From assembly GCA_963713605.1 (NCBI GenBank), contig CAVQMO010000010.1, positions 608,001 to 672,000 of the forward strand: DNA of 64,000 nt, written 5' to 3'. The stretch is from an uncultured Nitrososphaerales archaeon. Lineage in GTDB: Archaea; Thermoproteota; Nitrososphaeria; Nitrososphaerales; Nitrososphaeraceae. This document shows positions 6,163-61,523 of the stretch, one piece after another. The position numbers and the translations under genes are program-made. The notes beneath the pieces were generated by a model that saw only the letters and a list, made by a program, of their open reading frames with translations, had not been told where the DNA came from and did no database searches. The first letter of the stretch is position 1. The number at the start of each line of letters is the position of its first letter.

Positions 6163-6261
6163 ATGGACAACCAGGGCTGTCTAAATGACATTCATTTGCT
6201 TCTTATAAAGATTTGGAGCGCTCGAAAGGCATTAATAAAAATCTAGCGAATGTAATTTGGA

Positions 6262-6891
6262 TTGTTAAATATTAAGGAAGACTTTCACGTCCATACAAGT
6301 TATAACGATCATTCTGCCCCTGATCTGAATGTTGTATCAGCTGCTAAGTATGCTGAATCAATTGGCTTAAGGACGCTGGCATTCACAGAACATGTCAGGA
6401 GAGAATCGAATTGGATCGATAGCTATGTGAATGAAATTGAAACGAACAATACTAAACCCAATCTAAAATTAATCACAGGTTTTGAAGCAAAGATTCTTAG
6501 AGACGGATCGATTGACTGTCCTCCGAAGTATAGCGCAGATTACTTTGTTATTGCTAGTTTCCATACCATTTACGGTAACAAAGAAATTTGGATGAATGCC
6601 ATTAAAAATGCAATTCAGAATCCTGACGTTGATGTGATTGGACATTTGGCTCCAGAACCGACTTTTAGTTTGGATAAAGACGAATTAATAGAAATATGCC
6701 AGCTACTCAAAGACCATGGTAAAATAGTTGAATTAAATGCGAAATATAATAGACCCCCTATGGACTGGGTCCTCAAATTCAAAAAATACAATGTAGAGTT
6801 TCATCTAGGTAGCGATGCTCATTCATTGAACGAAATTGGAGAATTTAATAGAATTCTTAAATTAGTTGAGGCTGTTGGTGCTAACTCCTAG
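6262..6891 (+). CDS. PHP-domain phosphoesterase
   Basis: DFHVHT, FTEH, ASFH, IGH and GSDAH metal-binding motifs. Confidence 0.88.
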   Translation: MLNIKEDFHVHTSYNDHSAPDLNVVSAAKYAESIGLRTLAFTEHVRRESNWIDSYVNEIETNNTKPNLKLITGFEAKILRDGSIDCPPKYSADYFVIASFHTIYGNKEIWMNAIKNAIQNPDVDVIGHLAPEPTFSLDKDELIEICQLLKDHGKIVELNAKYNRPPMDWVLKFKKYNVEFHLGSDAHSLNEIGEFNRILKLVEAVGANS

Positions 6892-7029
6892 ATAATCGTT
6901 ATTCAATGAGAAAAAGCTGTAGTGTTTAACTTGCAGAGGATGATGTCTATTCTCCATAAAGCGGCATACTAAATGACAAATCCTGGAAATTTATATAGTG
7001 GAGCTTAGTTGATAGTCTGTTAATACTCA

Positions 7030-8716
7030 ATGTGTGCTGAAGCATCTCTAGGTCCAACCACACAATGCATCAGATCCCTTTTTTCTCAATATGAAAGAGT
7101 TAACAACTCCATACTTTCAGATTATATTTCGTCCATTCCCGAAAGCTTGTCCGATGCAGTTAAAAGGGTACGAGAGCATTTAACAGTTACTAATACAGAG
7201 GATATTTTATCTAACCGCCGAAAGCTGGCTAAGCATATCGCTGCCTTTCATGGCCAAGCTGGTACTGATTTTCCAGCCGTAGACCAAAACAGAATGAATA
7301 TTCAAGATCCATCAGCACAGATTTTAGTATCGATACATCAACCAAATCTTTTTGCTTATGGTGGAGTATTTAAGAAGATAGTTCTTCTGCAAACTATCAA
7401 ATCGATGCTTGAAAAAGGGAATGGTGCATCGGATACCAAAACCAGATTCGTCAATTTGTTTTTGATAGTTGATCATGATTTTATGGATGACGTATGGGTA
7501 AGAGTCGCTCAGCTGCCAAGCGTAAGACATTCGGATGGTGTTCTAGAGCTAAGAATGCCTATCACAGCTTCGAACAGATGGAAATTGGTTCGAAATATGG
7601 AAGTTCCCCCTGTAGCAATCGTTGACCATTGGAGAAAACAGGTGGCCTCTTGGATTAAGAATGGATCCCTTACTTTAGGTCTTGAGAAAGATGAAAGACT
7701 AGCACTTTTTGGGAACTTGGAACAATTTTGGAAAGAAGTGGACGAATCATACAATAGGGCAAGATCGTATGCCGATCTCAATTCTTTCATTATGTCAAGA
7801 GTGGTCAATAAGTTGTGGGGATACAACACATTATTCGTCCGATTATCAGATATTTCAGAAGTTTTCGAAGGAGGGTTTAATTTTCTGCTCAATAATTTTA
7901 GAAAATATTCAGAAATATTGAGTGAGAGTGATATGATGTTTCTGCGTAGTGGTATTAATACGGGTGTTAGTCAACGAACTTATCTTAATGCCCCAGTTTG
8001 GCTGCATTGTAAATGTGGAAGTAAGGCGTCGGTTAAATTGATTGAAACTGAAAGGGGTATCTTTGACTTGTCCGGAACCTGTATGTCGTGTAAGAGACCA
8101 CTTACCGTAAGGCTCGACGGATCTGACTCCCGCCGTATACCAAGTAGTATACTAAATGAACTGTCTCCGAGAGCTATCCCGATCCTCTTATTACTTTCCA
8201 GAGATTTAGGTCTATGCTGCCTACGCGTCCGGCACAGGTGGCAGCATGGGCTACACAATGGTTGGACGAATGGTATTCAAAGAATTTTCTATAAAGATGC
8301 CCGTCACTGTCGTTTGGGCATCAGAGGACGTCTACTCAGGACTGGGCCAAACAGAAGCACTCCAATCATTAAAATTTAAAAATTCATCAGAGGTTATCAA
8401 ATATGCTGAGCAACTTAGAAATCTTCTTTCCAACTTCAACGCAAAGATAGCCCCGTTGTTGTCTAAAAGAGCAGAGTTGACTAATGATGGACAGGACATC
8501 CAAGATACCCTAAACGAACTAGCTGTCTTGAAGCAAGAACAAAGGAATACAAGGCAGTTATTGAAAATTAGTGACAAAGTAATAAAAGCCTCTACCCTCA
8601 AGCCGTGTATAGTCGACTACGCAATAAATTTCGGATTAAAAGACACCGAAAATTTATGGAGAAATAAGCTGATTCAGAACGACGACCTGGCAGCGCCCAT
8701 TACGATGCTTAGATAG
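7030..8716 (+). CDS. BshC/WbqC-like protein with CxC...CxxC insert and coiled-coil C-terminus; frameshifted near 8230
   Basis: SIHQPNLFAYGGVFKKIV and downstream VDHDF match the layout of BshC (GQQ.GL..GP...K ... EDHD); ORFs 7030..8379 and 8246..8716 join. Confidence 0.55.
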
Positions 8717-8891
8717 CTTTTAGTAGGGACAGAGATCCAACAAATTGATCATATTTTTGGTTAATTTGCTTCAATGCACATTATTTATAGCAGACTCACA
8801 AACAGTCATACTAACATTTTTCGACATAAACACCGATATCAATGAAGGAATTGACTTCTCGACCAACTCATTAACTGCTTGAGGAAGGGGA

Positions 8892-10058
8892 TTGGAGAAA
8901 TTTTCAATGAAAAGAAATGCAACTGTATTAGTTACTGCCGCCGGTGGAATTGTAGGTCAAGGGATCATGAAGTCTCTACGATTAGCAACTAGTTCATCTT
9001 TTTCTCCAAATAGTTATCGAATCCTCGCTGTTGATTCCAGTCCTCTAGCTGCCGGTCTTTACAGATCGGATATCGGTCTAGTCGTCCCAAAGGCATCCGA
9101 TCCAGAGTATATTAATTCAATCATCACGCATCTAAAGAACTATTATGTTGATGCACTGTTCGTGGGCTCGGATGAAGAATTAATGGCTATCGCTACCGCA
9201 AAGAAGAGAATCGAAAGGGAATCTCCAGCCAAGGTGCTAGTCTCCGACGTGGATGTTATAAAAATTGCACGCGACAAATGGGAAACCTACAAGTTTCTGA
9301 AGACTAATAATCTGAGCTGTGCCGAGTCGTGTCTCCCTGAGGAAAAGGATGAATTTACTGAAGAGTTCGGATTCCCTCTGGTGGTCAAACCACGAGAGGG
9401 TTTCGGTTCAGTCAAATTCTATGTCACCAAATCTACTGATGAGTTGGAATATGCACTCACTCAAATTCAGGATTATGGTTGGAAGCCGATGCTTCAAGAA
9501 TATTTGCCAGGTCCAGATGACGAATTTACATCTGGAGTAACAGTTGACAAGAACGGCACATACACCATGTCATCTATCGCGATTAGGAAGTATTTGAAAG
9601 GCGGGCAAACTTACAAGGCGTTTATTGACGACTATCCAATAGTTAGTTTGTCAGCTGAAAATGTGGCAGAAAAATTAGGAGTGACAGGGGCAGTGAATAT
9701 ACAATCTAAGTATGTTCCAAATTATGAAACAACAAGTTCTTCAAAGACTGCTGTAGAATTTGAGCCCAGAAACCTTAATGAATCCATGCAAAATGGAAGA
9801 ATGAAGATATTTGAGATTAACCCCCGCTTCTCGGCTACATGTCCACTTCGTTCATATGCCGGCATTAATGAACCTGATATTGTATTTAGGAACGCCGTGT
9901 TCGATGAGAGAATAGAGAAAGTTAGCAATAGTAGGAGACTTGTCTGTATGAGGTATTGGAATGAAGTTTATGTGGATCTTGCCGCATATGAAAAATTGAA
10001 AAATGTTGGCTCGGTCAAAGAAGGATTAGAAAATTCTAGTATCCCTGATTACTTCTAG
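8892..10058 (+). CDS. ATP-grasp domain protein
   Basis: VLVTAAGG N-terminus, KPREGFGS, LQEYLPG..EFTSGV, FEINPRFS. Confidence 0.87.
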   Translation: MEKFSMKRNATVLVTAAGGIVGQGIMKSLRLATSSSFSPNSYRILAVDSSPLAAGLYRSDIGLVVPKASDPEYINSIITHLKNYYVDALFVGSDEELMAIATAKKRIERESPAKVLVSDVDVIKIARDKWETYKFLKTNNLSCAESCLPEEKDEFTEEFGFPLVVKPREGFGSVKFYVTKSTDELEYALTQIQDYGWKPMLQEYLPGPDDEFTSGVTVDKNGTYTMSSIAIRKYLKGGQTYKAFIDDYPIVSLSAENVAEKLGVTGAVNIQSKYVPNYETTSSSKTAVEFEPRNLNESMQNGRMKIFEINPRFSATCPLRSYAGINEPDIVFRNAVFDERIEKVSNSRRLVCMRYWNEVYVDLAAYEKLKNVGSVKEGLENSSIPDYF

Positions 10059-10220
10059 CTTCAAATGCTTAGCATGATTCAAAAGCACCGGTGACCACTC
10101 AGATTGTACTAAAAAATTTGAATTATTACTGTGATAGTAGGTTCCATAAGGAATGTCTTATTCATTAAATAAGTCAGACCTACGAGACAGAAAATCTTCC
10201 CTAATCCTATCCATTTGAGA

Positions 10221-11532
10221 TCAGGTGCTACTAATGCTGTCTTTGTGACTATTAATTACGGATGAGACGTAATCGATAGAACTAGTTCTTCCTGTCCTGC
10301 GACTAGGCTGTATGTTTGCAGTTTGTGATGCTCGTGATAATCTATATCTCTTGTATTCTTCATCTACTTCCATTGATGCCTTTAATATTCTGCTCCTCGT
10401 AGCAACAGATTTTGAAGATTGTAGAAACATTTTGGTATCTTTTGGCAGACAGTGTCCTCCTATGCCATCCCTGGGCTCGAGTATTTCTACATTCCATTTG
10501 GTATTTAGGGCTTCACGCAATTCTGGGAAGTTTATGCTATTAGCTTGACAGTAGAGGTAGATATCCTCTGCAAAGGCTATTTGAAGATATCTGTGTGCAT
10601 TTTCAGCTATCTTTGTTATTTCAGCAATTTCTACATCAGAAACAGGATGTAATGGTATTCCTAGATTAAGAGGAGTGTAATTGATGTCATTATTTTTGCC
10701 AGCTGAGGAATAGGAAGAAGAGAAGAAGAAGAAGAAGTAGAAGTAGAAGTAGAAGTAGAAGAAGTATTCATAGTTGTAGGGGAAGAAGGAGTAAAGGAAG
10801 AAGTAGTAATAGCATCGTCCATAGTCGAGGGAGTGATTTCGATGCTGGTATCGCCCATGAGGATGCTGTTATTGTTATTATCAATACCATGGCCATTACC
10901 AATACCATTACCATTGCCATTTGCCATTACCATTATTACCATTGCCAATATTGATTTTGTTGTTGTTGTTGCTGTTGCTGTTGTTTATGTCGTTGTTAAC
11001 ATTAATTTGGCCGTAGAACTGTACAGCTGCTTTAAGACAACAATCACACACTCCTCCAACTACACGCAACTGGTTAACTCCGTGTTCTTTTTCTTCTAAA
11101 GCATACCATCTATGAGGTATGTGTGCAACATGTAATCTATGGCTTAGCATCTCAAATACCTTCTTAGATGTTCCTCTTGGAATAGTGCTTTCTATTGAGA
11201 CAAGTGCACCATTTTTGGCTTCCTTTGCAATTTTCTCTTGTACAATAGAGAATAAACCATCTATCTGAGGCGTAAACATATCGTCTGGCATGTGTGTAGA
11301 GATGCAAATAATGTATACATCAAATTCACTGAAACTATCCGCTTTCTTTATAGCAGACTATCTTTTCTGCACGCTGCATTGCTTTTTGACTAATATCATA
11401 TCCGTATACATCAAATCCTCTCTCCTTCACATATTTGGCTACCGGAAGGCCAAGCTGGCCCAAACCTATTATAAGAACCTTGTCGGCTAAAGCATGAGTA
11501 TTCGCTCTTAGGTCAACTTCTGCGACCACCAT
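10221..11532 (-). CDS. Nucleotide-sugar dehydrogenase (UDP-ManNAc/UDP-glucose dehydrogenase family), with low-complexity insert, no evident C-terminal domain; frameshifted
   Basis: IIGLGQLGLP Rossmann motif, SIESTIPRGT, AEITKIAENAHRYLQIAFA and GIGGHCLPKD catalytic motif across fragments. Confidence 0.8.
10715..11000. repeat. Microsatellite-like low-complexity tract ((GAA)n, (GAAGTA)n, (TTG)n, (CCATTR)n) inside the dehydrogenase
   Basis: Visible short tandem repeats encoding Asn/Gly and Ser/Thr runs. Confidence 0.85.
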
Positions 11533-33410: not shown

Positions 33411-33737
33411 ATGCGAATGTCGCTGCCACGCGGTAAATCGGCGATAAAGAAGTTTCCCGGCACTGACGACCTACTACCAACTGAAGAAGAGATAAATGAA
33501 TGGACCAGAAGGTCAAGGAAGGAAGGCGTATGCGGTATAATCAATTGCTTCAACAAGCCAACCGCTCAATGTAAAAAATGCACTACCTATTATTGTTCAG
33601 AACATTTTTCCCCACACATTGACCTATTGGCAGACGGCGACTATAAATACGCTAGTTCAAATGAAGATCTAGAACGGTATATGGGTGAAATTGATGACTC
33701 TAGTTCAAATGAGGGTCTAGATGCATATATGGATTGA
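33411..33737 (+). CDS. Small Cys/His zinc-finger protein with acidic tail
   Basis: CGIINC..P..QCKKC..YYCSEH..H. Confidence 0.6.
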   Translation: MRMSLPRGKSAIKKFPGTDDLLPTEEEINEWTRRSRKEGVCGIINCFNKPTAQCKKCTTYYCSEHFSPHIDLLADGDYKYASSNEDLERYMGEIDDSSSNEGLDAYMD

Positions 33738-38200: not shown

Positions 38201-38632
38201 TTATTTTAGAACCAACACTTTAAGCAGTCCATCAACCAAGAGTTTTCCGAATCCGTCCTTAATGGTCGCCTTGATGGTAATAATTCTTGTAGATTCGCTT
38301 TTACCTGTAATTATGCCATCAATTATCACGTCTTGGTTCAGATAGCAAGGAGAAAGATGCTTGCCAGAATAGGAAAGCAGGAGTCCATTCTCTCCAGGTA
38401 GATGCATTCCTACCAAACGTGAGAAGAAAGATCCTATAAGCATACCGTGGCATATTCTGTGTTTGAATTCAGTTTTGCGAGCATGCTCTTCGTCCATGTG
38501 GATTGGCGCATAATCCCCGGTAATTTTTGCAAATTCATTGACCATTGATTCAGTAATACTAACTCTGAACGATTTTGTAAGGCCTTCCTCGATATCTTTC
38601 AGTGTGTATTGTGAGATGGTAGCTTCATCCAT
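38201..38632 (-). CDS. MaoC-family (hotdog-fold) dehydratase
   Basis: FAKITGDYAPIHMDEEHA...F..RICHGML, LPG motifs; overlaps ACP stop. Confidence 0.9.
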   Translation of the reverse strand: MDEATISQYTLKDIEEGLTKSFRVSITESMVNEFAKITGDYAPIHMDEEHARKTEFKHRICHGMLIGSFFSRLVGMHLPGENGLLLSYSGKHLSPCYLNQDVIIDGIITGKSESTRIITIKATIKDGFGKLLVDGLLKVLVLK

Positions 38633-38864
38633 TTAACGATGCACCGCGTACTGATAGTATATTTTTTATATCCTTTATCTTCTTGATGTTTAATAATTCA
38701 TTAAGAGTAAATTTTACATTAAATTTGGATTCAAGTTCCTCAAATAATATCAATCCACGGAATGAATCCCAATTTTCGATTGTTTCGGGTCCAGAATCAT
38801 CATCAATCTGAGAAACCTGCACCTCCATAATATTAGCAACAATATCCAAAAGATTGTTAGACAT
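38625..38864 (-). CDS. Acyl carrier protein
   Basis: 79-aa acidic helical protein, NWDSF phosphopantetheine-Ser motif, LESKFNVKF. Confidence 0.9.
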   Translation of the reverse strand: MSNNLLDIVANIMEVQVSQIDDDSGPETIENWDSFRGLILFEELESKFNVKFTLNELLNIKKIKDIKNILSVRGASLNG

Positions 38865-40628
38865 TAATCTTCATTTAGTTCAATATGACTTGTCTGTTTA
38901 ATAGGTACGTGATAAGTATACACCCATTGTTCCCCTTCCTTTTTGAACCCAAAGTTAGGTAGGAGATGCTCGCATGGTTTGTTTTTTTTAGTTGGTATGA
39001 ACTCAGCCTTGACCTTTACAACCCCTTCTTCCTTCGCCTTACTCAAGATATATCCAAGCATCACGTTCTCTATTCCTCTCCCCATTACTCTGCAGCTTAG
39101 CAGAAAAGTATCAATGAACCATTCTTTATCGGCGTGGTTTTTGTTGACAATATATACGCCGGTAATACCATTGTCGCCAAATTTGTCCTTGGTTTGCGCA
39201 CACCCGATCAATTTGGTTTGATCATGAGCAAACATTTGAACATCTTCTTCTTGATAACGATGAGTTGTAAGATTGAATTGATTGGTCTTGAGTGTGAGCT
39301 GAGCTATTCTCGGAATGGTGAAATCATTTGCCTTCTTCATCGTCACTTTGATTCCCAGTTGCTTAAGAAAATCTTCCAAATTCGAAGCAGAATTCTTTAA
39401 CTTAATTCTTTTCTGTTCCTGATTGTACATCTGACCTCTATTTTTATCTTCACTAGTCACGGCGAGGGTGTTAAAATCGTTAATTCTCATCAAGGTGGAG
39501 GCATATAAAGACGGATCATCAGGCAAATTGATCGTCATAACCTGTGGTATGGCCTTTAACATTAATTCTCTATTTACGGGGTCATCGTCAAAGTAGACAA
39601 TGCTCTCTAATCCAATATTTAATTCCTCTGCTATTTCTTTCATATTAGAAATTTTGTCGTTCCAGTTTATTTTTATAGTTGCAAAATTTTCTTCCCGAAG
39701 AACCATGTACGGATGTTCTCGAATAGCCCTTAAAGCCTCGTCTTCATTGTTTCTGCTGTTAATCGCAAGAATCAATCCTCTTTGATACAGTGCTAGAAGT
39801 ACACGCTGAAATTCCACGAACGCCATGCCAGGCGGTTTTAATGAAAGGTCAATTCGATCAAACCCATCCTCTCCAATTATGCCACCCCATAAGGTGTTAT
39901 CTAAATCAAGTACTATACACTTTCGATTTACTCCCAGGTTAGCTTTGACATATGCCATTAACTCCTCCGCTAGGTGCGGGATATGGCTCAAGGAGACCTT
40001 GATATCACCAACAAGAAATTGTCGATAATCTAAAACATTGACCTCGCCGTATTTGGACACAAAAGAATTGAAATCGAATAAGAACACTTGGGAGTCGCTT
40101 CTGAACACATCAGACAATTTGGCGTTGAAATCATATACCATGTCCCTAAGACCATATTCAGACTTGCCTTCACAGATGCCGTACGGTGAATACGTCGGGA
40201 TACTGCAATTCGTCAAGACCAATTTTGAACCGGTCCTATTTTTGAAGGCTCTGACTAAATTCACGAGATCTGCGACGCGTTTGTCAATGTAACTTCTCCT
40301 CTCGTTGACAGATATGGCATAAGGGGTATAGAAAAGAGTAGACATGACTGTTCTAGTGTCGATAATTATGAAAGTAATATCAGGAGAAAATTCATACAAT
40401 TTACTCGATTGATCAAGAATATCTTGATTGTATTGTCCATATCCGCAAATATAAGTCGCGCAGGTTATGTCGCTTTCTGCACATTTAACTCGAAGGGCTT
40501 CTTCTAAGCCATTAATCGTAAAACTGCTAAGAATAGCAATTTTGATTTTCTTTTGGAAAATCCGGCCCTCTATAGACCTTGCTTTCGCTATGAAGTACCG
40601 ATAGGTTAGGTTCCACCTGCGACTGCAT
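38864..40628 (-). CDS. fkbH: FkbH-like glyceryl-ACP synthase (HAD-IIIC phosphatase/transferase); frameshift near 5' end
   Basis: KCIVLDLDNTLWGGIIGEDG, KINWNDK, FDDDPVNRE, KTNQFNLT, DKFGDNG, FLLSCRVMGR; N-terminal KIAILSSFT..YGQYNQDILD continues upstream to ATG 40628. Confidence 0.93.
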
Positions 40629-40936
40629 TGACTTAGATTGTTTTGCGTTGAATTCTTATATAGATTCCGGAATAATTGACTAGGAGATTGGATCTATGTC
40701 AATACCATCTTATTCATAATTATATTGCGGTTATTATAGGTTCAACAGCGCATAGCTGAATAACTGAAGTTTTTTTATAGATTTCAAACTGAATTACAAT
40801 AAAGATGATTAATGACTTTAGGCGAGGTTTTGTACATCTCGCAAGTTAGAATTAGATTAACCCGAACGGCAAGTTAATCGAAACATCTTTACTGAATTGT
40901 CAATATTGCCATTTGTCATCTCGTTCCGCTTTACAA

Positions 40937-41935
40937 TTAGTGACCTATGCTTTTGGCAACGGTTGTTTCAGGTTTCACAAATGTATCCGCCTGAATGTGT
41001 CTTCCTGGCATGATAATGACAGATGTGCTAATAGTACAATTGTTTCCAACAAGTGCTCCAAAGCGGTCTACTCCAGTATCTATTGATTTGCCTTTCTCAA
41101 TTTCGTATGATATTTTTTGTTTAGTGGATAGAGCATTCAAGGTTGCCGCATAAGCTCCGAACCATACGTTTTCTCCTATGATGCTATCAACCAATATGTT
41201 CTGTTGTGATATTTTATCACTGCCTAATAGATAGGACCTAGCGATTTCACAGTTGAATCCTATCCTTGTTTTATCACCTAACATGCAGTTTCTAATCAGA
41301 GAGCTCATCCCGATGAAACTGCCTTTACTAATATACGTGGGTCCTTTTATTTTGCAAAAGTCATCGATTGTAACGTCATCTTCAATTATGCATGGACCAT
41401 CAATAACAGTAGATTTGGATATTGATGCATTTGGTGATATTGATGCATGCCTCACTTCATCTTGCAAAATCTTTTGAATTACATAATGAAGGTCCCAAGG
41501 ATATTTGATTGGATTTATTAAGATGTTTTTTTCTTTTTCTGATTGTAAATACCATATGGCTGAATTTAGTGGTATTTCCAAAAAATCCATATTCTCTTTG
41601 ATTGATATGCTGTAACTACGAGCAGCGGTACTATTATTGTCGATGTCATTAGATGAATTGCTATCATTAGATCTGATATCATCATCCTCATCCTCATATT
41701 CCTCCACATCAATTGCTGAAAAATTATCTTGAAGTAGCTTCAAAGTGGTACCGCATTTGGAAGGTACTTTAATTCTATGAATATTCTGAATCCTACTTGC
41801 TATGCTTACATTCCGAACTATTAGCGGTTGGTGGTGCAATACTTTAAGAGAAGAGACGGGGGTTTGGCTTTCATTCTCATTTGTATCTACAATTGAATGT
41901 AGAAAATGCTTAGATCGGCGAAAGATCAGCTCCAT
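40937..41935 (-). CDS. Left-handed beta-helix (hexapeptide) acyltransferase-like protein, GlmU C-terminal-like; copy 1
   Basis: IKYPWDL linker, hexapeptide repeats (IDGPCIIEDDVTI, IKGPTYISKGSFIG, DSIIGENVWFGA, FGALVGNNC). Confidence 0.8.
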   Translation of the reverse strand: MELIFRRSKHFLHSIVDTNENESQTPVSSLKVLHHQPLIVRNVSIASRIQNIHRIKVPSKCGTTLKLLQDNFSAIDVEEYEDEDDDIRSNDSNSSNDIDNNSTAARSYSISIKENMDFLEIPLNSAIWYLQSEKEKNILINPIKYPWDLHYVIQKILQDEVRHASISPNASISKSTVIDGPCIIEDDVTIDDFCKIKGPTYISKGSFIGMSSLIRNCMLGDKTRIGFNCEIARSYLLGSDKISQQNILVDSIIGENVWFGAYAATLNALSTKQKISYEIEKGKSIDTGVDRFGALVGNNCTISTSVIIMPGRHIQADTFVKPETTVAKSIGH

Positions 41936-42034
41936 ATTGCAATGTAGATATATACAAGTGGACTAGTTTAAATCAATTTGTGTTTACATAATCATGAATT
42001 GCCTTACTCATGTCTTGTATGGAGAAGTTATCTT
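40983..42034. repeat. About 1.05-kb direct duplication, copy A (copy B 45467..46518), including about 100 bp upstream of the start
   Basis: Near-identical sequence at offset 4484; differences cluster in the 3' part of the gene. Confidence 0.93.
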
Positions 42035-42576
42035 CTTTATGAAATAAAGTCTATCCTATCTATTTCATGATATGCGCCATTATCCCCTTTTAAATATATT
42101 ACAGTTACTTTATGGCTGGATCCGACTTCAAATTAGAAACTGTAAAGTAGTTTCTAGTCTCAATCAAAACCTCCCAGAATGCTAAAAAATATTATGGAGC
42201 TTCATAATCAGTATGTATTCTGCCTAAAATAATTAATTAAGATCTGATGTACTATCACAATTTTTAGCATTGTTGGAACCATTTCTAACAAGTGGTAATG
42301 ACGACTAGTAAGTTATGTAGCATTCTGAAGTACTGGTAGGAATAAATTTTGTCATTTAGCCGTTTAGATTGTCGATCATCTTGGATGAATCTATTAGAGA
42401 TTCACGGAAACAATATTGCTATACAAGCAGATAATATTCGCTTATGTCACCTCAGGATATTAAAGGATCATACTATGGATTGACTGATTCAATACAAAAG
42501 TGAATCTCATATCTACCAAAGTCGATTCATTTGGCTCGTAAACATTAAAAAGGAGGATGCCTATTACGCTATTAAA

Positions 42577-42687
42577 ATGTCAGCGGCAACTGAAATAAGA
42601 TGTCCACAATGCAATAGTCTTTATGTTGCACCAAGCCCTGAGAATAAGAATAGGCTCGAGTGCAAGGAATGCGGCACACTCTTCTGA
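42577..42687 (+). CDS. 36-aa zinc-ribbon microprotein
   Basis: MSAATEIRCPQCNSLYVAPSPENKNRLECKECGTLF* with two CxxC knuckles. Confidence 0.55.
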   Translation: MSAATEIRCPQCNSLYVAPSPENKNRLECKECGTLF

Positions 42688-42936
42688 TAGGATTAATTAT
42701 TATCTGATAACTTGGCAGATAGCCAATTTTAATTGATTCAATCTAGGCGACTAATTCGATACTAAAGTGCTCAACCTCGTTCCAAACAACACCTATTTCA
42801 ACATTCTTTAATTGTGTTGTTCTGAACAAATGGCCAACTAAAACACTAGTATTCTGTATAATAGGAACGTTATCTTTATAATTCATTGAATATGTGGAAC
42901 ACTTTAATTACTCTATTTTACGAATGTGTAAAAGAA

Positions 42937-43071
42937 ATGGAAGAAATTCAAAAAGCAAATTGCTCTTCGTGTGGAACGTCATTTATGGGACAGAATGAAG
43001 CCACCATATATCCATCATGCTCTGCGGGGCAACAAGACCATTGACACAATGGCTGTGGCTGCTGACATTGA
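42937..43071 (+). pseudogene. Degenerate Cys/His-rich microprotein
   Basis: MEEIQKANCSSCGTSFMGQNEATIYPSCSAGQQDH*HNGCGC*H*. Confidence 0.35.
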
Positions 43072-43255
43072 CCTAAGCAGAGTTTAACATTCTTTTTTTG
43101 AATTACTAGTCTTTAGGGACTGAATGCGAGCCTTCGCAACTAAGGTAAGGGACTGATAATTTTCCGTGGGAAACATGTTTTTACTATATAAACTAATTGA
43201 ATTGACCTTGTCCCAAGAATTGGATATGTGCATTAGCGTATCCGAATACACCTGA

Positions 43256-43591
43256 TCATTTTCCACCATTTCCAATAGTATCTTCATAACATCCTCTAAC
43301 TTCTGCTCTTGTAGGTTCTTCTTTAAAGTAATTGGGCTCGGTGCTCGACAAACTATTGTCGACAACCTCTTCGATACAATCGTAAAATAGTGGAAGCTCA
43401 TTATTTAAGTTAGAATTCCCTGTATTGATGGGGATAAGCGGTACTGCCTCACCAAAAGCAATGCCTACTGTTGGGGTTTGAGATAGTGCGAATGCACCAA
43501 TTACCATCAGGACAGCAAAAATACCTGTCACCTTGGTCACAAGAAACACTTTTGATTCATTCATACTTATTGTCTTCCCAATAATTGCCAA
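43256..43591 (-). CDS. Secreted/membrane-anchored hypothetical protein with Cys pair
   Basis: Hydrophobic N-terminus; LPLFYDCIEE...EPTRAEVRGCY. Confidence 0.65.
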   Translation of the reverse strand: MAIIGKTISMNESKVFLVTKVTGIFAVLMVIGAFALSQTPTVGIAFGEAVPLIPINTGNSNLNNELPLFYDCIEEVVDNSLSSTEPNYFKEEPTRAEVRGCYEDTIGNGGK

Positions 43592-44355
43592 ATTGATTTA
43601 AGTGAGTTAAGATAGAATACACTTATCATTACTTCAGTGAAATATTATGTATCGAAAAAGCATCCATTTTACGAGCTTCATACGTAGCTGCCTTCGCCTC
43701 AATACTAGAGATCCAGTTTTAGCCACTATTCGTTACCCTATAATCTGTGCTGTAAATTCGATGCATGATAGAGGTATTTGGGAGAATATTCTTAGAAATC
43801 AGATTATCAAGGTATATACGGCAGCGTAGCTGAATCCATCACCATCCCCGACCAGCGAAATCTGGCTTGTGTCCTTCACGAAAGGTCTGGCTACTGACTT
43901 GAACTCAAGAAAATAAGCTTTGTAAATGCATCATTTGAATAACAAGTCGTACTCTAGTACATATTAACCCTATACCACTAGCGGTGCATATGACCATATT
44001 TAAAGAGTGACTGACTACATTAAGTACAGAATTCCGAATAACATGATACTTGCTATTTCTTTCTCTTGAGGTTCAGTTGGTTAATTCCAAAGTTGTAAAC
44101 AGCAGGTATATGACATCCTTGCCGTTATTTGTCCAGAAGCCTTTCTACGTTATATTGGTAACTTTATGATGTAAACATCGGTTCAGCACTCTTAGAGGTG
44201 CAATGAATATCCACATTGGATCACCGAATTTATATGACACTCTAACATAGGAATATCAATAACGTTAGACGTAATTGCTTATCATATTCATAAAGACGAT
44301 CTAAATTCAGCACGGTCAAGGATCTCATTATATAATCGATTGGTGTAATAATGCT

Positions 44356-44748
44356 GTGGTCAGAATATTCAAACGACGATATTACTATATTATAGCTGCA
44401 ATACTAATAGGAGGTACCGTTTTGTACTTTTACAATAGTTATATAAATAGACCCATGTTCGCGCTAGAATTAGATCCAACTAAGGATACTACAGATATCT
44501 CTGGAACGCAATACAGAATCAGACTTACAAATGTCGGTCAAAATGAAGTGACTGGAATACTAGTGAATTTGGGAGAAGATGACCTTCAGAATTTAACATC
44601 ACTTCAGCCAGGCCAATCATATTTTTTTTATCCCAAGCCAGACACTAGGCCTGCTATGATTAGCGTTATTACAAACGAAGGATTACATATTGAAGGCGAT
44701 TACAGGTCTCCAACAAAGGTTTTAGGATTACCTGGGGGAGGCAGATAA
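44356..44748 (+). CDS. Membrane-anchored Ig-like hypothetical protein
   Basis: N-terminal TM; YRIRLTNVG...LQPGQS pattern. Confidence 0.7.
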   Translation: MVRIFKRRYYYIIAAILIGGTVLYFYNSYINRPMFALELDPTKDTTDISGTQYRIRLTNVGQNEVTGILVNLGEDDLQNLTSLQPGQSYFFYPKPDTRPAMISVITNEGLHIEGDYRSPTKVLGLPGGGR

Positions 44749-44970
44749 TCACTGTAAAATCACATCCTTCTTTTGAATAAAAGTGAGGTTATTCTTTGGC
44801 CACCATCTGATGAACACAAAATTTCCACATAAAGATGGCCGTACCTGAGCCTGTCGGTTATAGATTATGGTATAAAAGGTTAGGAGCACTTTATCAAAGT
44901 TTACCCAAGTAGCCGGTGAACCTCATATTAATGGTTTTGCAGATGTTAGGAGATGAACGTATCTTATGCG

Positions 44971-45327
44971 CTAGTCAGTTATTGCGACTGCTATAGCAAG
45001 TGATTTGGTATGGGAAATTGATATCCGTGCTGAGATGATGTTCTTCCTTTTCCGATGAATAATAGCAGTGGGTTTTCCGTATTGTCCATGAATGATTTCT
45101 ATATCAATCATTTTTGTGGGTTTGTTCAAACATTTTAATATCGATTCCTTTGCAGCAAATATTCCAGCTAGATGAGGATACGGGTCAGAAAATTTGGCAC
45201 AATATTTCATTTCAGATTTTGTGAAAACTGAATGATAGAATCCTGTATTTCTGTCATTTAGTGGCTTGCTGCGAAATCGTTTGACTTCTATTATGTCTGT
45301 TCCAACATTCAAACTTTCAATAGTCAT
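44971..45327 (-). CDS. acpS: Holo-ACP synthase (AcpS-type phosphopantetheinyl transferase)
   Basis: VGTDIIEVKRF, FT..E..YC, LAGIFAAKESILK, GKP, ISISH..A.AVA. Confidence 0.93.
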   Translation of the reverse strand: MTIESLNVGTDIIEVKRFRSKPLNDRNTGFYHSVFTKSEMKYCAKFSDPYPHLAGIFAAKESILKCLNKPTKMIDIEIIHGQYGKPTAIIHRKRKNIISARISISHTKSLAIAVAITD

Positions 45328-45417
45328 ATGAGGACGCTGTCAAGATATTGCGATTGATACATACAATATACTTTCGAAGTCTATAGCCTTTTATTTTAGT
45401 TCAACTGTCGTTTGACG

Positions 45418-46419
45418 CTAGTTCTTACTGCTTACTTCATATGTTTTCCATAAGGCTTGAATCATCGTATCAGCCTGAATGTGTCTTCCTGGCATGATAA
45501 TGACAGATGTGCTAATAGTACAATTGTTTCCAACAAGTGCTCCAAAGCGGTCTACTCCAGTATCTATTGATTTGCCTTTCTCAATTTCGTATGATATTTT
45601 TTGTTTAGTGGATAGAACGTTCACAGTCGCCGCATAAGCTCCGAACCATACGTTTTCTCCTATGATGCTATCAAGTATTATATTTTGATGTGATATTTTA
45701 TCACTGCCTAATAGATAGGACCTAGCGATTTCACAGTTGAATCCTATCCTTGTTTTATCACCTAACATGCAGTTTCTAATCAGAGAGCTCATCCCGATGA
45801 AACTGCCTTTACTAATATACGTGGGTCCTTTTATTTTGCAAAAGTCATCGATTGTAACGTCATCTTCAATTATGCATGGACCATCAATAACAGTAGATTT
45901 GGATATTGATGCATTTGGTGATATTGATGCATGCCTCACTTCATCTTGCAAAATCTTTTGAATTACATAATGAAGGTCCCAAGGATATTTGATTGGATTT
46001 ATTAAGATGTTTTTTTCTTTTTCTGATTGTAAATACCATATGGCTGAATTTAGTGGTATTTCCAAAAAATCCATATTCTCTTTGATTGATATGCTGTAAC
46101 TACGAGCAGCGGTACTATTATTGTTGATGTCATTAGATGAATTGCTATCATTAGATCTGATATCATCATCCTCATCCTCATATTCCTCCACATCAATTGC
46201 TGAAAAATTATCTTGAAGTAGCTTCAAAGTGGTACCGCATTTGGAAGGTACTTTAATTCTATGAATATTCTGAATCCTACTTGCTATGCTTACATTCCGA
46301 ACTATTAGCGGTTGGTGGTGCAATACTTTAAGAGAAGAGACGGGGGTTTGGCTTTCATTCTCATTTGTATCTACAATTGAATGTAGAAAATGCTTAGATC
46401 GGCGAAAGATCAGCTCCAT
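45418..46419 (-). CDS. Left-handed beta-helix acyltransferase-like protein, GlmU C-terminal-like; copy 2
   Basis: As copy 1, but with KISHQNIILDS. Confidence 0.8.
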   Translation of the reverse strand: MELIFRRSKHFLHSIVDTNENESQTPVSSLKVLHHQPLIVRNVSIASRIQNIHRIKVPSKCGTTLKLLQDNFSAIDVEEYEDEDDDIRSNDSNSSNDINNNSTAARSYSISIKENMDFLEIPLNSAIWYLQSEKEKNILINPIKYPWDLHYVIQKILQDEVRHASISPNASISKSTVIDGPCIIEDDVTIDDFCKIKGPTYISKGSFIGMSSLIRNCMLGDKTRIGFNCEIARSYLLGSDKISHQNIILDSIIGENVWFGAYAATVNVLSTKQKISYEIEKGKSIDTGVDRFGALVGNNCTISTSVIIMPGRHIQADTMIQALWKTYEVSSKN

Positions 46420-46518
46420 ATTGCAATGTAGATATATACAAGTGGACTAGTTTAAATCAATTTGTGTTTACATAATCATGAATTGCCTTACTCATGTCTT
46501 GTATGGAGAAGTTATCTT
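45467..46518. repeat. About 1.05-kb direct duplication, copy B
   Basis: Matches 40983..42034. Confidence 0.93.
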
Positions 46519-46804
46519 TAATTCAATCCGATGTGTGACAAATGAGAAGGAATTAGGAAAATTAGAAGTGCTTATGATGCAATTCCCACAAACATTTGTA
46601 ATCAAGTTTGGATTGGCAATGCTGTCAAAACATAAGATTCCAGACAAATAAATTTCGAAATTGTTGGAGTCGAGTTTAGTTCCGTGCTGTCTAGAAGGAT
46701 AAAAGTCGAATTGTCTTATGTAAACGTATATTAAGAGGAGTTCAGCTATTTTTTGCACCTTTGACAAGGTACACGAAAAATCATGATATTTTAGGTGGTT
46801 TGAT

Positions 46805-47441
46805 ATGACAAAGAATCGAGTAATGATCGCATTTGGGGCGCACCCAGATGATATAGAAATCGGGATGGGAGGAACAGTAGCGAAATTGGCCAGAGTAGGT
46901 TATGATGTGAGACTAGTTATTGCTACTCTTCCAAACTTTGTAAAGACTGATACTAAAGAGGAGCGCAAGCAAGAATCTATTATGTCAGCAAAAGTTATGG
47001 GTTGTAAAACGCCAGAATTTCTCGATCTTAGTCCCGAAGAAATCGTTTTCAACAGAAAGTTTGTTACTCAAATTAGTAAGTTAATCCAAGAACTAAATCC
47101 TGAGGCTATATTTACTCAGTGGATCGGTGACACACACCAGGACCATCAATCATTAACGAGAGCAGTTGTGGCCGCAGGCTCGCGATTCTAACGATGTATT
47201 TATGTACGAAACCACTATTCCAGGAGGCATTAGTGAACATGCATTTAGACCTCAACTCTATGTAGACGTCACTGAAACATTAGAAATTAAAAGGAACGCA
47301 CTTGACTGTTTTGATTCTCAAAAAATCCGATGTGGACCTCTGTGGATAGATTCCCTGGTAGGAAGATGTTCTTACAGGGGGTATCAAATGAATGCAAAAT
47401 ACGCAGAAGCATTTGAAGTTATCAAGGTTTCCAAATGGTAG
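46805..47441 (+). CDS. PIG-L/LmbE family N-acetyl-sugar deacetylase; frameshift near 47178
   Basis: GAHPDDIEIG.GGT, RKQE, DTHQDH, YVDVT, YAEAF. Confidence 0.9.
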
Positions 47442-47558
47442 AAACCTGAGACATCTTTACATTGAATTCTTGAATTCCTGGCTGACCATCTTAAGCCAGC
47501 ATAATTCAAAGCTGTTCGTAAATCTGGCACAATGAGCTACTGCATATAGTCAGCTCCG

Positions 47559-48050
47559 CTAGATCTTTCCTGCATCCTTAAGTCTGGATTTCATCCTTAA
47601 CTCACCTTCACTATACCTCTTTTTGTCGTTATCATCCTCAAAAATTAAACGGGGAACCATTGTAGGCTTCCCATACTTGTCCAAGGCTACCATTGTTACG
47701 AACGCAGTAGCCGCATGCACTTTGGTATTATCATCTAGGTCCTCAGCCTCGACGTTTACCTCGATTTCCATGGAGGATCTACGAACGTATGTTATTCTAG
47801 CAGAAATTATGAGTGCATTTCCTATAAAGACTGGTTTCAGGAATACCATTCGGTCTATGCTTGCAGTGACAACATTCGCCCTACCCGAATGTCTTTTAGC
47901 TACCAAACCTGCAATTAAATCAACATGTTTTAGTATTACTCCCCCAAAGACATTTCCTTTGGGGTTGGCATCAGAAGGTAACATCATCACAATCATCTCT
48001 GCTTCAGATTCCGTTGGACGTTTCCCCTTCTCCCCACTATTAACAGACAA
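47559..48050 (-). CDS. Acyl-CoA thioesterase (hotdog, YciA-like)
   Basis: PSDANPKGNVFGG.ILK.VD, VVTASID, F..PV..G, TAFVTMVALD. Confidence 0.9.
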   Translation of the reverse strand: MSVNSGEKGKRPTESEAEMIVMMLPSDANPKGNVFGGVILKHVDLIAGLVAKRHSGRANVVTASIDRMVFLKPVFIGNALIISARITYVRRSSMEIEVNVEAEDLDDNTKVHAATAFVTMVALDKYGKPTMVPRLIFEDDNDKKRYSEGELRMKSRLKDAGKI

Positions 48051-57195: not shown

Positions 57196-57930
57196 TTTTG
57201 GTAATCTCTGTGAACTATATACAATCCAGAATATAACCAAATTGGAATTTTCTTCTCTAACTGAAATAACTGAAATATATTGAACTAATGATCTTTTTGA
57301 GAACCTCTATATATTAAGCGTCAACTATTTACACGCTGTAGTCTGCCTTGTTTTCAAGATAGCGCGATTTTCTGGATATTTTAGGTGTCTTTAACTTCGA
57401 CAGAGAAGGATTCAACACTAAAGCGAGATACATACCATTGCATTTCATTATGACATCCACCATGGATGAGGGCGTAAGAGATGATTCTCGACTATCGTTT
57501 TCATTCTCGAACATTAGAATTAGTTCCTAAAATGACTATTACGAATGCCCACGGGGAAGGAGATGAAGATAAAGATGAATTGGGATTCGCGATGCAAAGA
57601 ATTCAATTTTCGTAAAATCGGTTAGATCATGCTATTACTGTCATTCGACTGGTATTGTCGAAGCCTTAAAGAGGTAACAGATGAAAAATATGAGCTTCTC
57701 GTATTTTAACAATCTTATAGGTAATTCCAGAATCCCTTTGGTTTCCAGAATGTAATAACAAATAGTTCAAAAAATGAAGGGACTGCTTTTGGAAGGAAGA
57801 AAATAAAGATAAGTAGCATTATCTGCATTTGCAATCACACATCGATTCAAGTAATGCGGTATGGTTACGGATACAAGACTATGGAAGACATATAGCTAAA
57901 ATATATAAGCCATAGCGTTCGGTCAAATTT

Positions 57931-60900
57931 GTGCATATTAGAGGGACGTCTTTACAAACATATTTGTTTCTAACAATGGCGTTGGCCGCGATAGGCCTCC
58001 AGGTCGTGCCAATAAGCCAAATTTTCGCCACATCATCAGCTGGCTCAGCATCTGCAGCGTCGGGAGGATCAGCTTCAGCAGCTGCTGCAGCTGCGGGTGA
58101 CGCGGCTTCAGCAGCTGCTTCAGCGGCAGGTGCCTCATCAGGCAGCGGCTGCATCAGCAGGCGAGGCAGCATCTGCAGCAGCCTCGTCAACAGGAGAAGG
58201 ATCAGCCGCTGCCTCAGCGGCGGGTTCTTCCGGACAACGTTCAGCCGCAGCTGCGGCAGCAGCAGCAGGATATTCAGCTGCAGCGGCTGGAGCAGCCTCG
58301 TCCAACGGTGATGCAGCCGCGGCAGCGGCAGCCGGTGCATCAGCCGCGGGCAGCGGCAGCCGGTGCATCAGCCGCGGCAGCGGCAGCAGCGGGTTCAGCC
58401 GCTGCAGCCGCGGCCGCTTCTGGCTACGAGTCGGCTGCTGCTGCCGAGCAGCAGCAGCGGCAGCTGGCAACGGTGGTTCAGCAGCTGCAACGGCGAGCAG
58501 CAGCCGGGGGAGCTGCTGCAGGTGTAGCAGCTGCCGACGGTTATTCTGCTGCGGCCGCAGCTGCAGCAGCGTCTGGTCGGTCTGGTGCTGCCGCCGCAGC
58601 AGCCGGCAGCACAGGAGCTTCATCAGCCGCTGCCGGTTGTTCAGCTGCAGCCGCAGCTGCAGCAGCTAACGGTGCGGCCGCTGCGGCCGCTGCCGCAGCT
58701 TCTTCCGGCGGTGGATCGTCTTCTGCAGCTGCCGCAGTAGCAGCGGGCCAAGCAGCAGCCTCAGCAGCAGCATCAGGTGGGTGTTCCGTATCAGCAGCTG
58801 CAGCGCAGCAAGTGCAGCATCTTCGGCAGCCGCAGGAGGTTCAGCCCGCCGCAGCCGCAGCCGCAGGAGGTTCAGCCGCCGCAGCCGCAGCTGCAGCAGC
58901 CACAGGAGGTTCAGCCCGCGCAGCCGCAGCGGCAGCAGGGGCGGCTTCGGCAGCTGCCTGCAGCTGGCGGATCATCTGCTGTTGCAGCTGCCGCAGCAGG
59001 TGGCGGCGCAGCCGGGGCGGCAGCTGCTGCAGCCGGGAGTGCAGGCAGCAGCAGCAGCATCGAGCTCAGGGCTTAGCGGCGCAGCGGGCAGCAGCAGCAG
59101 CTGGTGGGGCAGCCGCAGCGGCAGCAGGCAGCAGCTGGTCGGGCAGCCGGAGGCAGCAGCAGCCTCAGCAGGTGGCGGTGCAGCCGCAGCAGCAGCAGCG
59201 GCAGGAAGTGCAGCCGCAGCCGCAGCTAGTGGTAGTGGTGCAGCAGCCGCAGCAGCAGCAGGAAGTGCAGCAGGTGCAGCAGCAGCCGCAGCTGCAGCAG
59301 GTAGCGGCGGTGCAGCAGCAGCCGCAGCCGCGGCTGGCCAGGCGAGCAGCCGCAGCCACAGCATCAGCCGGTGGCTCTGCAGCAGCAGCAGCAGCAGCAG
59401 GTGCAGCAGCATCAGCCGGAGCAGCAGGTAGTTCAGCCGCAGCTGCAGCAGCAGGTAGTGGTGCAGCCGCAGGAGCAGCTGCAGCGGGTGGTGGTGCAGC
59501 CGGCAGCAGCCGCAGCAGCTGGTAATGCAGCTGCTGCAGCAGCATCATCAGCCGGTGAGGATGATGCAGTCAGCGAGCAGCCTCAGCAGCAGCATCCGGT
59601 GGTGGTGCAGCGGCAGGTGCAGCAGCAGGTGAGGGCAGCAGCCGCAGCAGCAGCATCCGGTGGTGATGCAGCAGCAGGTGCAGCAGCAGCCTCAGCAGCC
59701 GCAGGCAGCAGCCTCATCAACAGGCAGTGAATCAGGCAGCAGCAGCAGCAGGCAGCATCATCAGCCGGTGAAGATCCAGCAGCAGCCGGCAGCAGCAGCA
59801 GCAGGGCAGTCAGGCAGCAGCAGCAGCAGGAGCGGGTGAAGCGCGGCAGCAGGAGCAGTAGCAGCGGGTGAAGATCCAGCCGCAGCAGCTGCCCTCAGCA
59901 GCTGAAGAAAATGGAGGCTCAGCAGCCGCCGCAGCTGCCGCAGGTCAAGCGAGCAGGACAGTCAGGCAGCAGGCAGCAGCAGCAGCAGAAGGAGCTGGTC
60001 AGGATCCAGCAGAAGCCGGCAGCAGCTGCAGCAGCGGCAGGCGCATCGGAACCTGAACAGGCGCAAGAAAGCGCTGCCTGGGGCAGCTGGAGCTGCGCAG
60101 ACTCTTCAAACTCAGATCGAAGAGCCTACTGAAGAAGGAGCGCCACAGCAGCAACAACAACAATTAGCACCTCCAGAAGACGGTGTAGCACCTCCAGAAG
60201 ACGGTGTAGCACCTCCAGAAGATGATGAACAACAGCGGCAATTATTGGCCCCAGATGGTGCGCACTCCAGAAGGGGGCAGCTCCAGAGTGTGATCCTCCT
60301 GAAGTACTAAATCCAGATACAAATCAATGCGAAGCTCCTCAAGAAGCAGCTCCAGAGTGTGATCCTCCTGAAGTACTAAATCCAGATACAAATCAATGCG
60401 AAGCTCCTCAAGAAGCAGCTCCAGAGTGTGATCCTCCTGAAGTACCTAAATCCAGATACAAATCAATGCGAAGCTCCTCAAGAAGCAGCTCCAGAGTGTG
60501 ATCCTCCTGAAGTACTAAATCCAGATACAAATCAATGCGAAGCTCCTCAAGAAGCAGCTCCAGAGTGTGATCCTCCTGAAGTACTAAATCCAGATACAAA
60601 TCAATGCGAAGCTCCTCAAGAAGCAGCTCCAGAGTGTGATCCTCCTGAAGTACTAAATCCAGATACAAATCAATGCGAAGCTCCTCAAGAAGCAGCTCCA
60701 GAGTGTGATCCTCTGAGGACTAAATCCAGATACAAATCAATGCGAAGCTCCTCAAGAAGCACTCCAGAGTGTGATCCTCCTGAAGTACTAAATCCAGATA
60801 CAAATCAATGCGAAGCTCCTCAAGAAGCAGCTTCCAGAGTGTGATCCTCCTGAAGTACTAAATCCAGATACAAATCAATGCGAAGCTCCTCAAGAAGCAG

Positions 60901-61523
60901 CTCCAGAGTGTGATCCTCCTGAAGTACTAAATCCAGATACAAATCAATGCGAAGCTCCTCAAGAAGCAGCTCCAGAGTGTGATCCTCCTGAAGTACTAAA
61001 TCCAGATACAAATCAATGCGAATCTCCTCAAGAAGCAGCCTCCAGAGTGTGATCCTCCTGAAGTACTAAATCCAGATACAAATCAATGCGAAGCTCCTCA
61101 AGAAGCAGCTCCAGAGTGTGATCCTCCTGAAGTACTAAATCCAGATACAAATCAATGCGAAGCTCCTCAAGAAGCAGCTCCAGACGGTGGTGCGAGCCCC
61201 AGACGGTGGTGCAGGTCCACAGGCAGCAATTTGCAGCTCCAGAAGATACAACTCCTATCTGTACTCCTCCTGAGGTTTTGAACACTGACACCGGTGAATG
61301 CGAGGTTCCGGAACCGCCTCCAGGTGACAATGAAGCAGTAGCTCCTCAAGTAGGCGTTCCCTCCTGTCTTCCTGGCGAGGTGTTCAATCCTGCCACAGGA
61401 ATATGCGAGGTTACTCCTCCAACTGAATCAGGCGATCAACCACCTAACAATGGTGGAATACCGTCAGGACCACCAGCGAATGGAGAAACTGATGGCGATG
61501 GAGACCAGCCAGACCAAGAGTGA
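57931..61523 (+). CDS. Giant secreted low-complexity protein: signal peptide, poly-Ala/Gly-Ser blocks, acidic linker, Cys-hairpin tandem repeats; multiply frameshifted
   Basis: Signal peptide (..MALAAIGLQVVPISQIFA); GCN-codon runs 58036..60110; 69-bp repeats; single logical end GDQPDQE* at 61523. Confidence 0.75.
60283..61179 (+). repeat. 69-bp tandem repeat x13 encoding PECDPPEVLNPDTNQCEAPQEAA
   Basis: Units start at ~60283, 60352, 60421, 60491, 60560, 60629, 60698, 60764, 60834, 60903, 60972, 61042, 61111; two diverged units follow. Confidence 0.95.

Follow-up and report, generated by a model that had tools for sequence, protein, structure and literature searches.

FkbH/OzmB-type proteins are HAD-type loading enzymes that dephosphorylate 1,3-bisphosphoglycerate and put the glyceryl unit on a carrier, as described in the accessible part of one source (PMC8949500). 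Here we describe an archaeal locus in which such a protein is encoded together with an acyl carrier protein (ACP), a MaoC-type dehydratase and an AcpS-type phosphopantetheinyl transferase. The locus is part of a 64,000-nt stretch (the window; all coordinates are positions in it) of a contig from an uncultured Nitrososphaerales archaeon, whose genome (G000) is 87% complete by estimate. Eight genes of the locus, namely fkbH, the ACP gene, maoC, acpS, two genes for left-handed beta-helix (LbH) acyltransferases, a PIG-L deacetylase gene and a thioesterase gene, are real and archaeal; an earlier note on this DNA had listed all of them, and each was recovered. We propose, with a probability of roughly 0.6, that the FkbH-ACP-MaoC-AcpS cassette has been grafted onto an amino-sugar pathway of the Nitrososphaeraceae, in which it would alter the N-acyl group of the sugar. 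The mechanism as a whole, predicted from sequence and gene context, is given the same weight.

The archaeal protein belongs to the same loader family as the FkbH/OzmB glyceryl transferase-phosphatases of polyketide synthases (PKS) and non-ribosomal peptide synthetases (NRPS), as it passes the TIGR01686 cut-off (310 bits, cut-off 146.65). It differs from them in being a long form with an FkbH_N domain and in its partners, a stand-alone MaoC protein and a sugar acyltransferase. Neither a ketosynthase nor a condensation domain was found in the 87%-complete G000 genome, which sets the locus apart from PKS, NRPS and fatty acid synthase systems alike. In the dehydratase-ketoreductase-FkbH-ACP loading modules of bryostatin and FR901464, glyceryl-ACP is dehydrated to pyruvyl-ACP and lactyl-ACP is made from it. 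The genes are separate here, there is neither a linked reductase nor a PKS, and the combination of MaoC with a short-chain dehydrogenase/reductase (SDR) is seen in just 2 of 24 sister loci.

The closest precedent from glycan biology is the flagellin locus of Campylobacter jejuni NCTC 11168, in which the gene cj1302 with an fkbH domain lies beside the annotated epimerase gene cj1301 (PMC7099621), and in which cj1295 is needed for the di-O-methylglyceroyl modification of pseudaminic acid (PMC3068675), both according to the accessible text. Both systems would place an acyl group derived from glycerate on an amino sugar. On the other hand, the Campylobacter locus involves an aminopeptidase-like protein instead of PIG-L, its acceptor is a nonulosonic acid, and the accessible text names no MaoC or LbH protein and gives no test of the role of cj1302. 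As far as the available portions of the sources go, ACP and ACP synthase are almost entirely missing from archaea (PMC3533463; bioRxiv 10.1101/2024.07.05.601840), and no archaeal ACP is known (PMC6138646). No description of an archaeal FkbH-ACP cassette was found in the literature covered, which did not extend to subscription journals and supplements. The primary paper on archaeal ACPs is reportedly that of Lombard in Mol Biol Evol, 2012, and may list these genes.

The carrier-protein cassette and its predicted chemistry

The genes fkbH (38864-40628; FkbH_N, HAD-IIIC and a C-terminal domain with an SCR cysteine), ACP (38625-38864; 79 aa) and maoC (38201-38632; a MaoC-type hotdog dehydratase of 143 aa, PF01575 57.5 bits against a cut-off of 27) are all encoded on the minus strand. 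Their reading frames overlap, in line with the translational coupling described in the earlier note: fkbH and ACP share TAATG, and ACP and maoC overlap by 8 bases. The LDLDNT and SCRV motifs that it had reported in FkbH were both found. The FkbH product is 587 aa long in relatives, and its DxDxT motif, DD motif and SCR cysteine, which we take to be the acyl-carrying residue, do not vary among the 18 sequences aligned. The extra N-terminal domain of the long form is PF21211. The catalytic His of SGNH-type enzymes is expected in an Asp-x-x-His motif, which is absent from the stretch of the FkbH N-domain where it should lie.

The ACP of the window has no Pfam or NCBIfam match. Its identity is concluded from three observations: PF00550 is found in 47-89% of the members of its nearest Atlas clusters, Ser34 in the WDS motif is present in every one of 27 sequences aligned, and the relative from genome G080 passes PF00550 (24.4 against 20.8 bits). 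It is the sole ACP-profile match in the genome; since ketosynthase and condensation domains were not found either, this ACP appears to have no assembly line to serve. A second ACP copy with 77% identity was observed in a relative (L024:3234-3470, on G010:C129), on the opposite strand and directly after maoC. AcpS (44971-45327, minus strand; 118 aa) passes both PF01648 (55.1 against 25 bits) and TIGR00556 (58.5 against 45.35 bits) and stays below the cut-off of the acpS equivalog TIGR00516 (49.2 against 59.8 bits). Two small proteins without family match are encoded between acpS and LbH1 throughout the genus: one at 43256-43591, the other at 44356-44748 on the plus strand (130 aa, with a hydrophobic N-terminal stretch, kept next to acpS and with a paralogue on contig C1).

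MaoC displays the motif GDYAPIH, presumably the catalytic motif of (R)-hydratases, with the Asp and His of the dyad retained and Ala where Asn is usual; Asp and His are kept in the 15 sequences displayed. Between G000 and its relative G003, synonymous and non-synonymous changes amount to 89:40 in fkbH, 42:18 in maoC and 9:5 in the ACP gene. Phosphoglycerate kinase is encoded in the G000 genome. The dedicated FkbH/ACP/AcpS/MaoC system of the earlier note is thus supported. That note saw no ketoreductase in the window; the genome has fifteen SDR matches, and a close relative of the cassette-type SDR was not found there (best 30% identity).

Based on family membership and co-occurrence, AcpS would very likely arm the single ACP at Ser34. 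FkbH, with its motifs intact, can be expected with good confidence to dephosphorylate 1,3-bisphosphoglycerate and to load glyceryl on the ACP. These two steps follow the chemistry of the families, as far as it is set out in the text available to us (PMC8949500), while the later steps are predicted from gene context. Dehydration to pyruvyl-ACP by MaoC is slightly favoured, as pyruvyl is the simplest product of a cassette that has MaoC but lacks a closely related SDR in its genome. Given the fifteen SDR matches, reduction may occur in trans, and lactyl-ACP made by an unlinked reductase is a more doubtful alternative; that glyceryl stays unchanged seems a little less likely again.

A scan for sigma-70 promoters and terminators gave results at chance level (47 against 41.6). 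Contigs of one RNA-library run (X17) cover fkbH, acpS, LbH and PIG-L; they also cover positions 42795-43003, a stretch without any open reading frame (ORF) of at least 60 aa, and are for this reason not taken as expression.

The acyltransferase pair and its proposed host pathway

LbH1 (40937-41935, minus strand) lies on the fkbH side and LbH2 (45418-46419, minus strand) on the acpS side. The earlier note had counted two LbH proteins. Both genes exist, but they are not independent: they form a direct repeat in which 1,039 of 1,052 bp are identical (98.8%) and which spans most of the gene and about 100 bp 5' of the start codon (copy 1, 40983-42035; copy 2, 45467-46519; no strand assigned to either). 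The proteins are not of the LpxA/LpxD type, which that note had brought in as a precedent, as the best scores against these profiles are far below the cut-offs (44.8 against 207 and 29.5 against 226 bits; for the LpxD profiles 38-45 bits with cut-offs of 207-242). Instead, both LbH proteins are degenerate derivatives of archaeal GlmU, as judged from their sequences. Of archaeal GlmU, only the C-terminal half is matched (TIGR03992, 104.3 bits against a cut-off of 292.1), their N-domain has no match to NTP_transferase or another nucleotidyltransferase family, and their best match in sequence and fold is ST0452 (PDB 2ggo, 5z09), with the fold alignment extending over most of both chains. Two additional LbH-family copies were observed in G000 (C3:264334-265404 and C5:3-522), one of them intact with about 40% identity and one broken.

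In alignments, His244 of LbH2 falls on His308 of ST0452 and on His363 of E. coli GlmU, a residue that we assume to be catalytic in the acyltransferase domain. The equivalent of ST0452 Asn331 is also retained in LbH2, and that of Tyr311 is lost. Loss of the equivalents of E. coli GlmU Y366, N377 and K392, with the roles that we presume for these residues, argues against glucosamine-1-phosphate as the acceptor. LbH1 carries Gln244 where LbH2 has the conserved His. This Gln is found in the fkbH-side copy of 6 of the 7 genus genomes with a readable position (G006 has His) and additionally in 2 metagenome loci. The pocket geometry of LbH2 was not read, because the predicted structure is weak near the active site (predicted local distance difference test, pLDDT, below 50 at residues 229-243). 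A predicted complex between the ACP and three copies of the LbH2 C-terminal domain scored 0.00 and is not used as evidence either way.

Within a genome, codons 1-240 of the two copies are 99.6-99.9% identical in three independent single-contig pairs, as against 93% between G000 and G003 and 71% in comparison with the metagenome locus L153. Identity between copies drops to 83-88% in codons 241-270 of the same pairs, and all three retain the distinct tails of the fkbH-side and acpS-side types (ALWKTY in LbH2). The pattern is that of an old duplication whose copies are homogenised by gene conversion except in an active-site patch. The patch seems to be converted at times, given the mosaic copies of L142, L145 and L148. 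Few complete pairs are available because short-read assemblies break within the repeat.

Cassette-linked copies also appear changed at the predicted acyl site. LbH residues 303-304 align with G404-S405 of E. coli GlmU, and position 261 with A380; we take A380 and S405 to hold the acyl thioester. At position 261 the family has Gly and most cassette copies have Ala. Residues 303-304 were compared across 79 LbH loci from metagenomes: they are GA in 53 loci and ST, GS or GT in 21, with 5 unreadable. A cassette gene is present on none of the 53 GA loci and on 19 of the 21 others, the two exceptions being contigs of 1.2-1.4 kb. As the association is mostly that of one clade, it is regarded as suggestive and not as a statistical test.

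The PIG-L/LmbE N-deacetylase (46805-47441, plus strand; AHPDD and HQDH motifs, 211 aa in relatives) is divergent from LbH2, in agreement with the earlier description; the two genes adjoin in the genus, in tandem in G004. PIG-L matches occur in 29 and LbH matches in 24 of 36 family genomes. The usual site of PIG-L in the family is between a dehydrogenase for nucleoside diphosphate (NDP) sugars and the ligase ATP-grasp A, in a cluster which also comprises a 560-aa protein (in 28 of 36 genomes), a PHP protein and a second ATP-grasp protein. The source genus retains this cluster, in G003 in both copies, and PIG-L is missing from its place between the dehydrogenase and ATP-grasp A. In the window it is found at 5158-11514 (ATP-grasp B, PHP, 560-aa protein, ATP-grasp A, dehydrogenase; no strand assigned), about 27 kb from the cassette, with the 560-aa gene split and the dehydrogenase in pieces. 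A membrane glycosyltransferase of family 2 (GT2) is part of the cluster in G014 and G030, and three loci have a flippase-like gene in it; GT2 candidates occur in 31 of 36 family genomes. We consider this family cluster (G014:C1:22600-30700 and G030:C37 in addition to the window copy) to be probably an amino-sugar polymer pathway of the Nitrososphaeraceae.

Several metagenome loci combine elements of both systems, with the orders pigL-LbH-acpS (L150), dehydrogenase-pigL-LbH-acpS (L157) and ATP-grasp-LbH-acpS, and in L153 a duplicated dehydrogenase-pigL-LbH unit stands on each side of the cassette. Since LbH copies of the family without a cassette adjoin PIG-L in 5 loci and the dehydrogenase in 5 loci, LbH and PIG-L seem to have worked together in a pathway of the host already before it gained the cassette. 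Hence, the earlier idea of a self-contained pathway had to be given up, as LbH and PIG-L are the family's own genes and tied to the older dehydrogenase/ATP-grasp/GT2 cluster. A gene adjoining LbH in G021 and G035 was considered as GT2 and rejected, as it encodes a glucose/sorbosone dehydrogenase.

In lipid A synthesis, deacetylation by LpxC is followed by ACP-dependent re-acylation by the LbH enzyme LpxD. A similar logic would operate here, with another deacetylase fold and a C3 instead of a long-chain acyl group. PIG-L would probably N-deacetylate an N-acetylhexosamine that is linked to a nucleotide, or its uronic acid made by the dehydrogenase, and transfer of the C3 acyl group to the freed amine by LbH is held to be equally probable. 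LbH2 is probably the source of the catalytic His, with LbH1 as a second type of subunit or as an enzyme for a second site. The product would, on balance, enter a surface polymer, for which the family-wide membrane GT2 is the candidate synthase.

The thioesterase at 47559-48050 (minus strand; YciA-like, hotdog fold) was considered as a part of the pathway and rejected. A match is carried by 25 of 36 family genomes and none lies within 7 kb of fkbH in the 24 other loci, which agrees with the earlier suspicion that it is a mere neighbour.

Some further observations were made. Next to the host cluster, positions 2347-4789 encode an apparently split protein with Ig/cadherin-like and F5/8 type C domains and a proline-rich repeat. 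NDP-sugar dehydrogenase is encoded four times in the genome, two of the copies being fragmented, and there are many glucose/sorbosone dehydrogenase paralogues on several contigs. G003 carries the host cluster twice and GT2 twice, about 9 kb apart (C12, C4, C11), due to duplication or to two merged strains. The GC content of 57900-61000 is 53-68%, compared with about 39% elsewhere, with many overlapping, spurious-looking ORFs and a strong AT skew, and two imperfect 36-nt direct repeats with a spacing of 48 nt lie at 33649-33732.

Distribution, origin and alternative explanations

FkbH scores above the cut-off in 12 of 61 relatives, including 10 of 14 from the genus. In the family it does so in 14 of 201 genomes (13 of 200 without the unpublished G522) and in the phylum in 12 of 401, 10 of these within the 56 genomes of one marine family. 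Soil metagenomes contain many close relatives of the lineage, and the 120 best homologues listed are all at least 88% identical. AcpS matches occur in 13 of the 61 relatives: both genes are found in 10, only one in 5 (fragmented genomes) and neither in 46. An ACP gene is present in all 24 other archaeal fkbH loci and an LbH gene in 22, the two misses ending inside fkbH. MaoC is found in 20 of them, accompanied by an SDR in 2, and a VOC protein in 4 (L122, L124, L126, L121), never both; the VOC protein resembles methylmalonyl-CoA epimerase below the cut-off. We infer that the MaoC, VOC and SDR genes may tune the C3 product. In one further metagenome locus (L194), neither MaoC nor VOC accompanies the cassette; a divergent LbH is found there along with a tandem pair of PIG-L genes that belong to a different subfamily. 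In 11 of 11 marine-family and distant loci, a different, short LbH is paired with a deacetylase of carbohydrate esterase family 4 (CE4), and most of these loci are inside glycan islands, one of them beside an STT3/AglB gene. Among 17 N-terminal extensions of FkbH that were scanned, most are tetratricopeptide repeats, with one CE4 (a single database record), one VOC (protein P0207) and no LbH.

In a midpoint-rooted FastTree phylogeny of 64 FkbH rows, all 9 soil rows group together (support 100), nested in a clade with 9 of 10 rows from marine ammonia oxidisers (support 100); G280 and G080 are placed elsewhere. This suggests a cassette that is old in the order and was patchily kept or passed on. 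No donor is named because of the midpoint rooting, the 44 unlabelled rows without taxonomy and the distance of the plasmid matches. The horizontal acquisition put forward in the earlier note was thus not a recent one, as judged from the supported soil and marine clade and from the GC content at third codon positions of fkbH, maoC, LbH1 and acpS, which is within the 5-95% range of the genome.

Several observations weigh against the proposed grafting. The Asn of MaoC is replaced throughout the soil clade, and acpS displays 12 synonymous and 11 non-synonymous changes between G000 and G003. The closest relative of LbH is the CoA-dependent GlmU rather than the ACP-dependent LpxA/LpxD, the change from His to Gln is missing in G006 and outside the genus, where both copies have His, and the association at residues 303-304 reflects largely one clade instead of independent events, with 26 of the 53 GA loci at least 5 kb long. 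Many family genomes contain PIG-L and LbH without fkbH, which speaks for a cassette-independent job of these proteins. G023 has the cassette and no PIG-L match was found (genome 87% complete). In G000 no glycosyltransferase adjoins the cassette, and its GT2 candidate is on another contig (C5), with one stop inside the match.

The same acyl exchange might yield a soluble small molecule, such as a bacillithiol-like glycoconjugate or a compatible solute, instead of a polymer. The top NCBIfam match of PIG-L is BshB1, the 560-aa protein gives a faint signal of the BshC N-domain (E 0.017 in one member) next to two ATP-grasp ligases, and the lack of an adjoining glycosyltransferase would fit as well. 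However, BshB1 scores 115 bits against a cut-off of 182.5, PF10079 is annotated on 1 of the 120 homologues of the 560-aa protein that were listed, this protein has no PDB match, and its fold model is unusable (pLDDT 46); BshA was not searched. As membrane GT2 and flippase-like genes occur in host clusters and sister cassettes in glycan islands, a small molecule appears unlikely. Less likely again is a neighbourhood by history, in which LbH and PIG-L run the acetyl chemistry of the host only and the C3-acyl-ACP, possibly giving an O-acyl product, is used by another enzyme or by the extra domain PF21211 of FkbH. The origin of LbH from GlmU and the family-wide presence of both genes without fkbH would be in line with this. 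Yet no Asp-x-x-His occurs in the expected stretch of the FkbH N-domain, unrelated LbH and deacetylase types adjoin fkbH in separate lineages, and the cassette-linked LbH is altered at the predicted acyl site.

A cassette in decay, with real frameshifts and LbH1 as an inactive duplicate, is very unlikely. There are two frameshifts inside 7 kb, namely one extra base relative to intact relatives near 40598 in fkbH, which starts at 40628, and another near 47176 in PIG-L, neither of them noticed in the earlier note; LbH1 has lost its His, and genes of the host cluster are likewise split in G000. Still, 7 of 32 genes of the assembly compared with relatives change frame, housekeeping-type genes among them, and the base at 40598 is absent at all depth in run X1 and in about half of X5, with no gap in runs X7 and X17. 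For these reasons the extra base in fkbH is probably an assembly error. The one in PIG-L is equally probably of the same kind: the site is not among the 12 gaps shown out of 28, and the pieces of X17 and X7 that span it have lengths fitting a one-base gap. As the sequencing runs contain related strains, there may be a strain-specific lesion at these sites. Gln244 is moreover common to 6 of 7 genus genomes, most of them with open fkbH frames. A contig that is chimeric with bacterial DNA, or a very recent import from bacteria, can hardly be entertained. Bacterial proteins make up most of the Atlas clusters nearest to FkbH, and 14 of 201 family genomes is a patchy distribution. Against this, G003 has the identical gene order from nirK to maoC, the LbH-fkbH-ACP-maoC block is kept in 8 further genus genomes, nirK and archaeal-type genes flank the cassette, the best plasmid-borne bacterial full-length matches have about 33% identity as compared to 45-60% in marine ammonia oxidisers, and the ammonia-oxidiser sequences form a single clade. 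The conserved gene order excludes the chimera which the earlier note had named as a possible refutation, and LbH and deacetylase genes do stand beside fkbH in other genomes, another point it had raised.

The grafting of the cassette onto the amino-sugar pathway may be extended to a joint reading, which we regard as improbable in its entirety. In it, a surface polymer of the genus would receive amino sugars with an N-pyruvoyl group (a keto-amide), made by an LbH enzyme with two types of subunit, one catalytic and one lacking the His, which gene conversion holds identical save for the active-site patch. The archaeal cassette would act as a product dial, in which VOC leads to inverted glyceroyl, MaoC alone to pyruvoyl, and MaoC with SDR to lactyl. 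If true, an archaeal enzyme of the CoA type would have been re-tooled for a carrier protein, and an abundant soil nitrifier would expose reactive ketones on its surface.

Five small soluble proteins would be sufficient for reconstitution, and the LbH paralogue pair represents a natural experiment on the residues that set the choice of donor and acceptor. The locus supplies candidate genes for glyceroyl, pyruvoyl or lactyl decorations of sugars, an enzymology without description in the accessible portion of the literature covered. It offers archaeal ACPs a concrete, testable role outside fatty acid synthesis.

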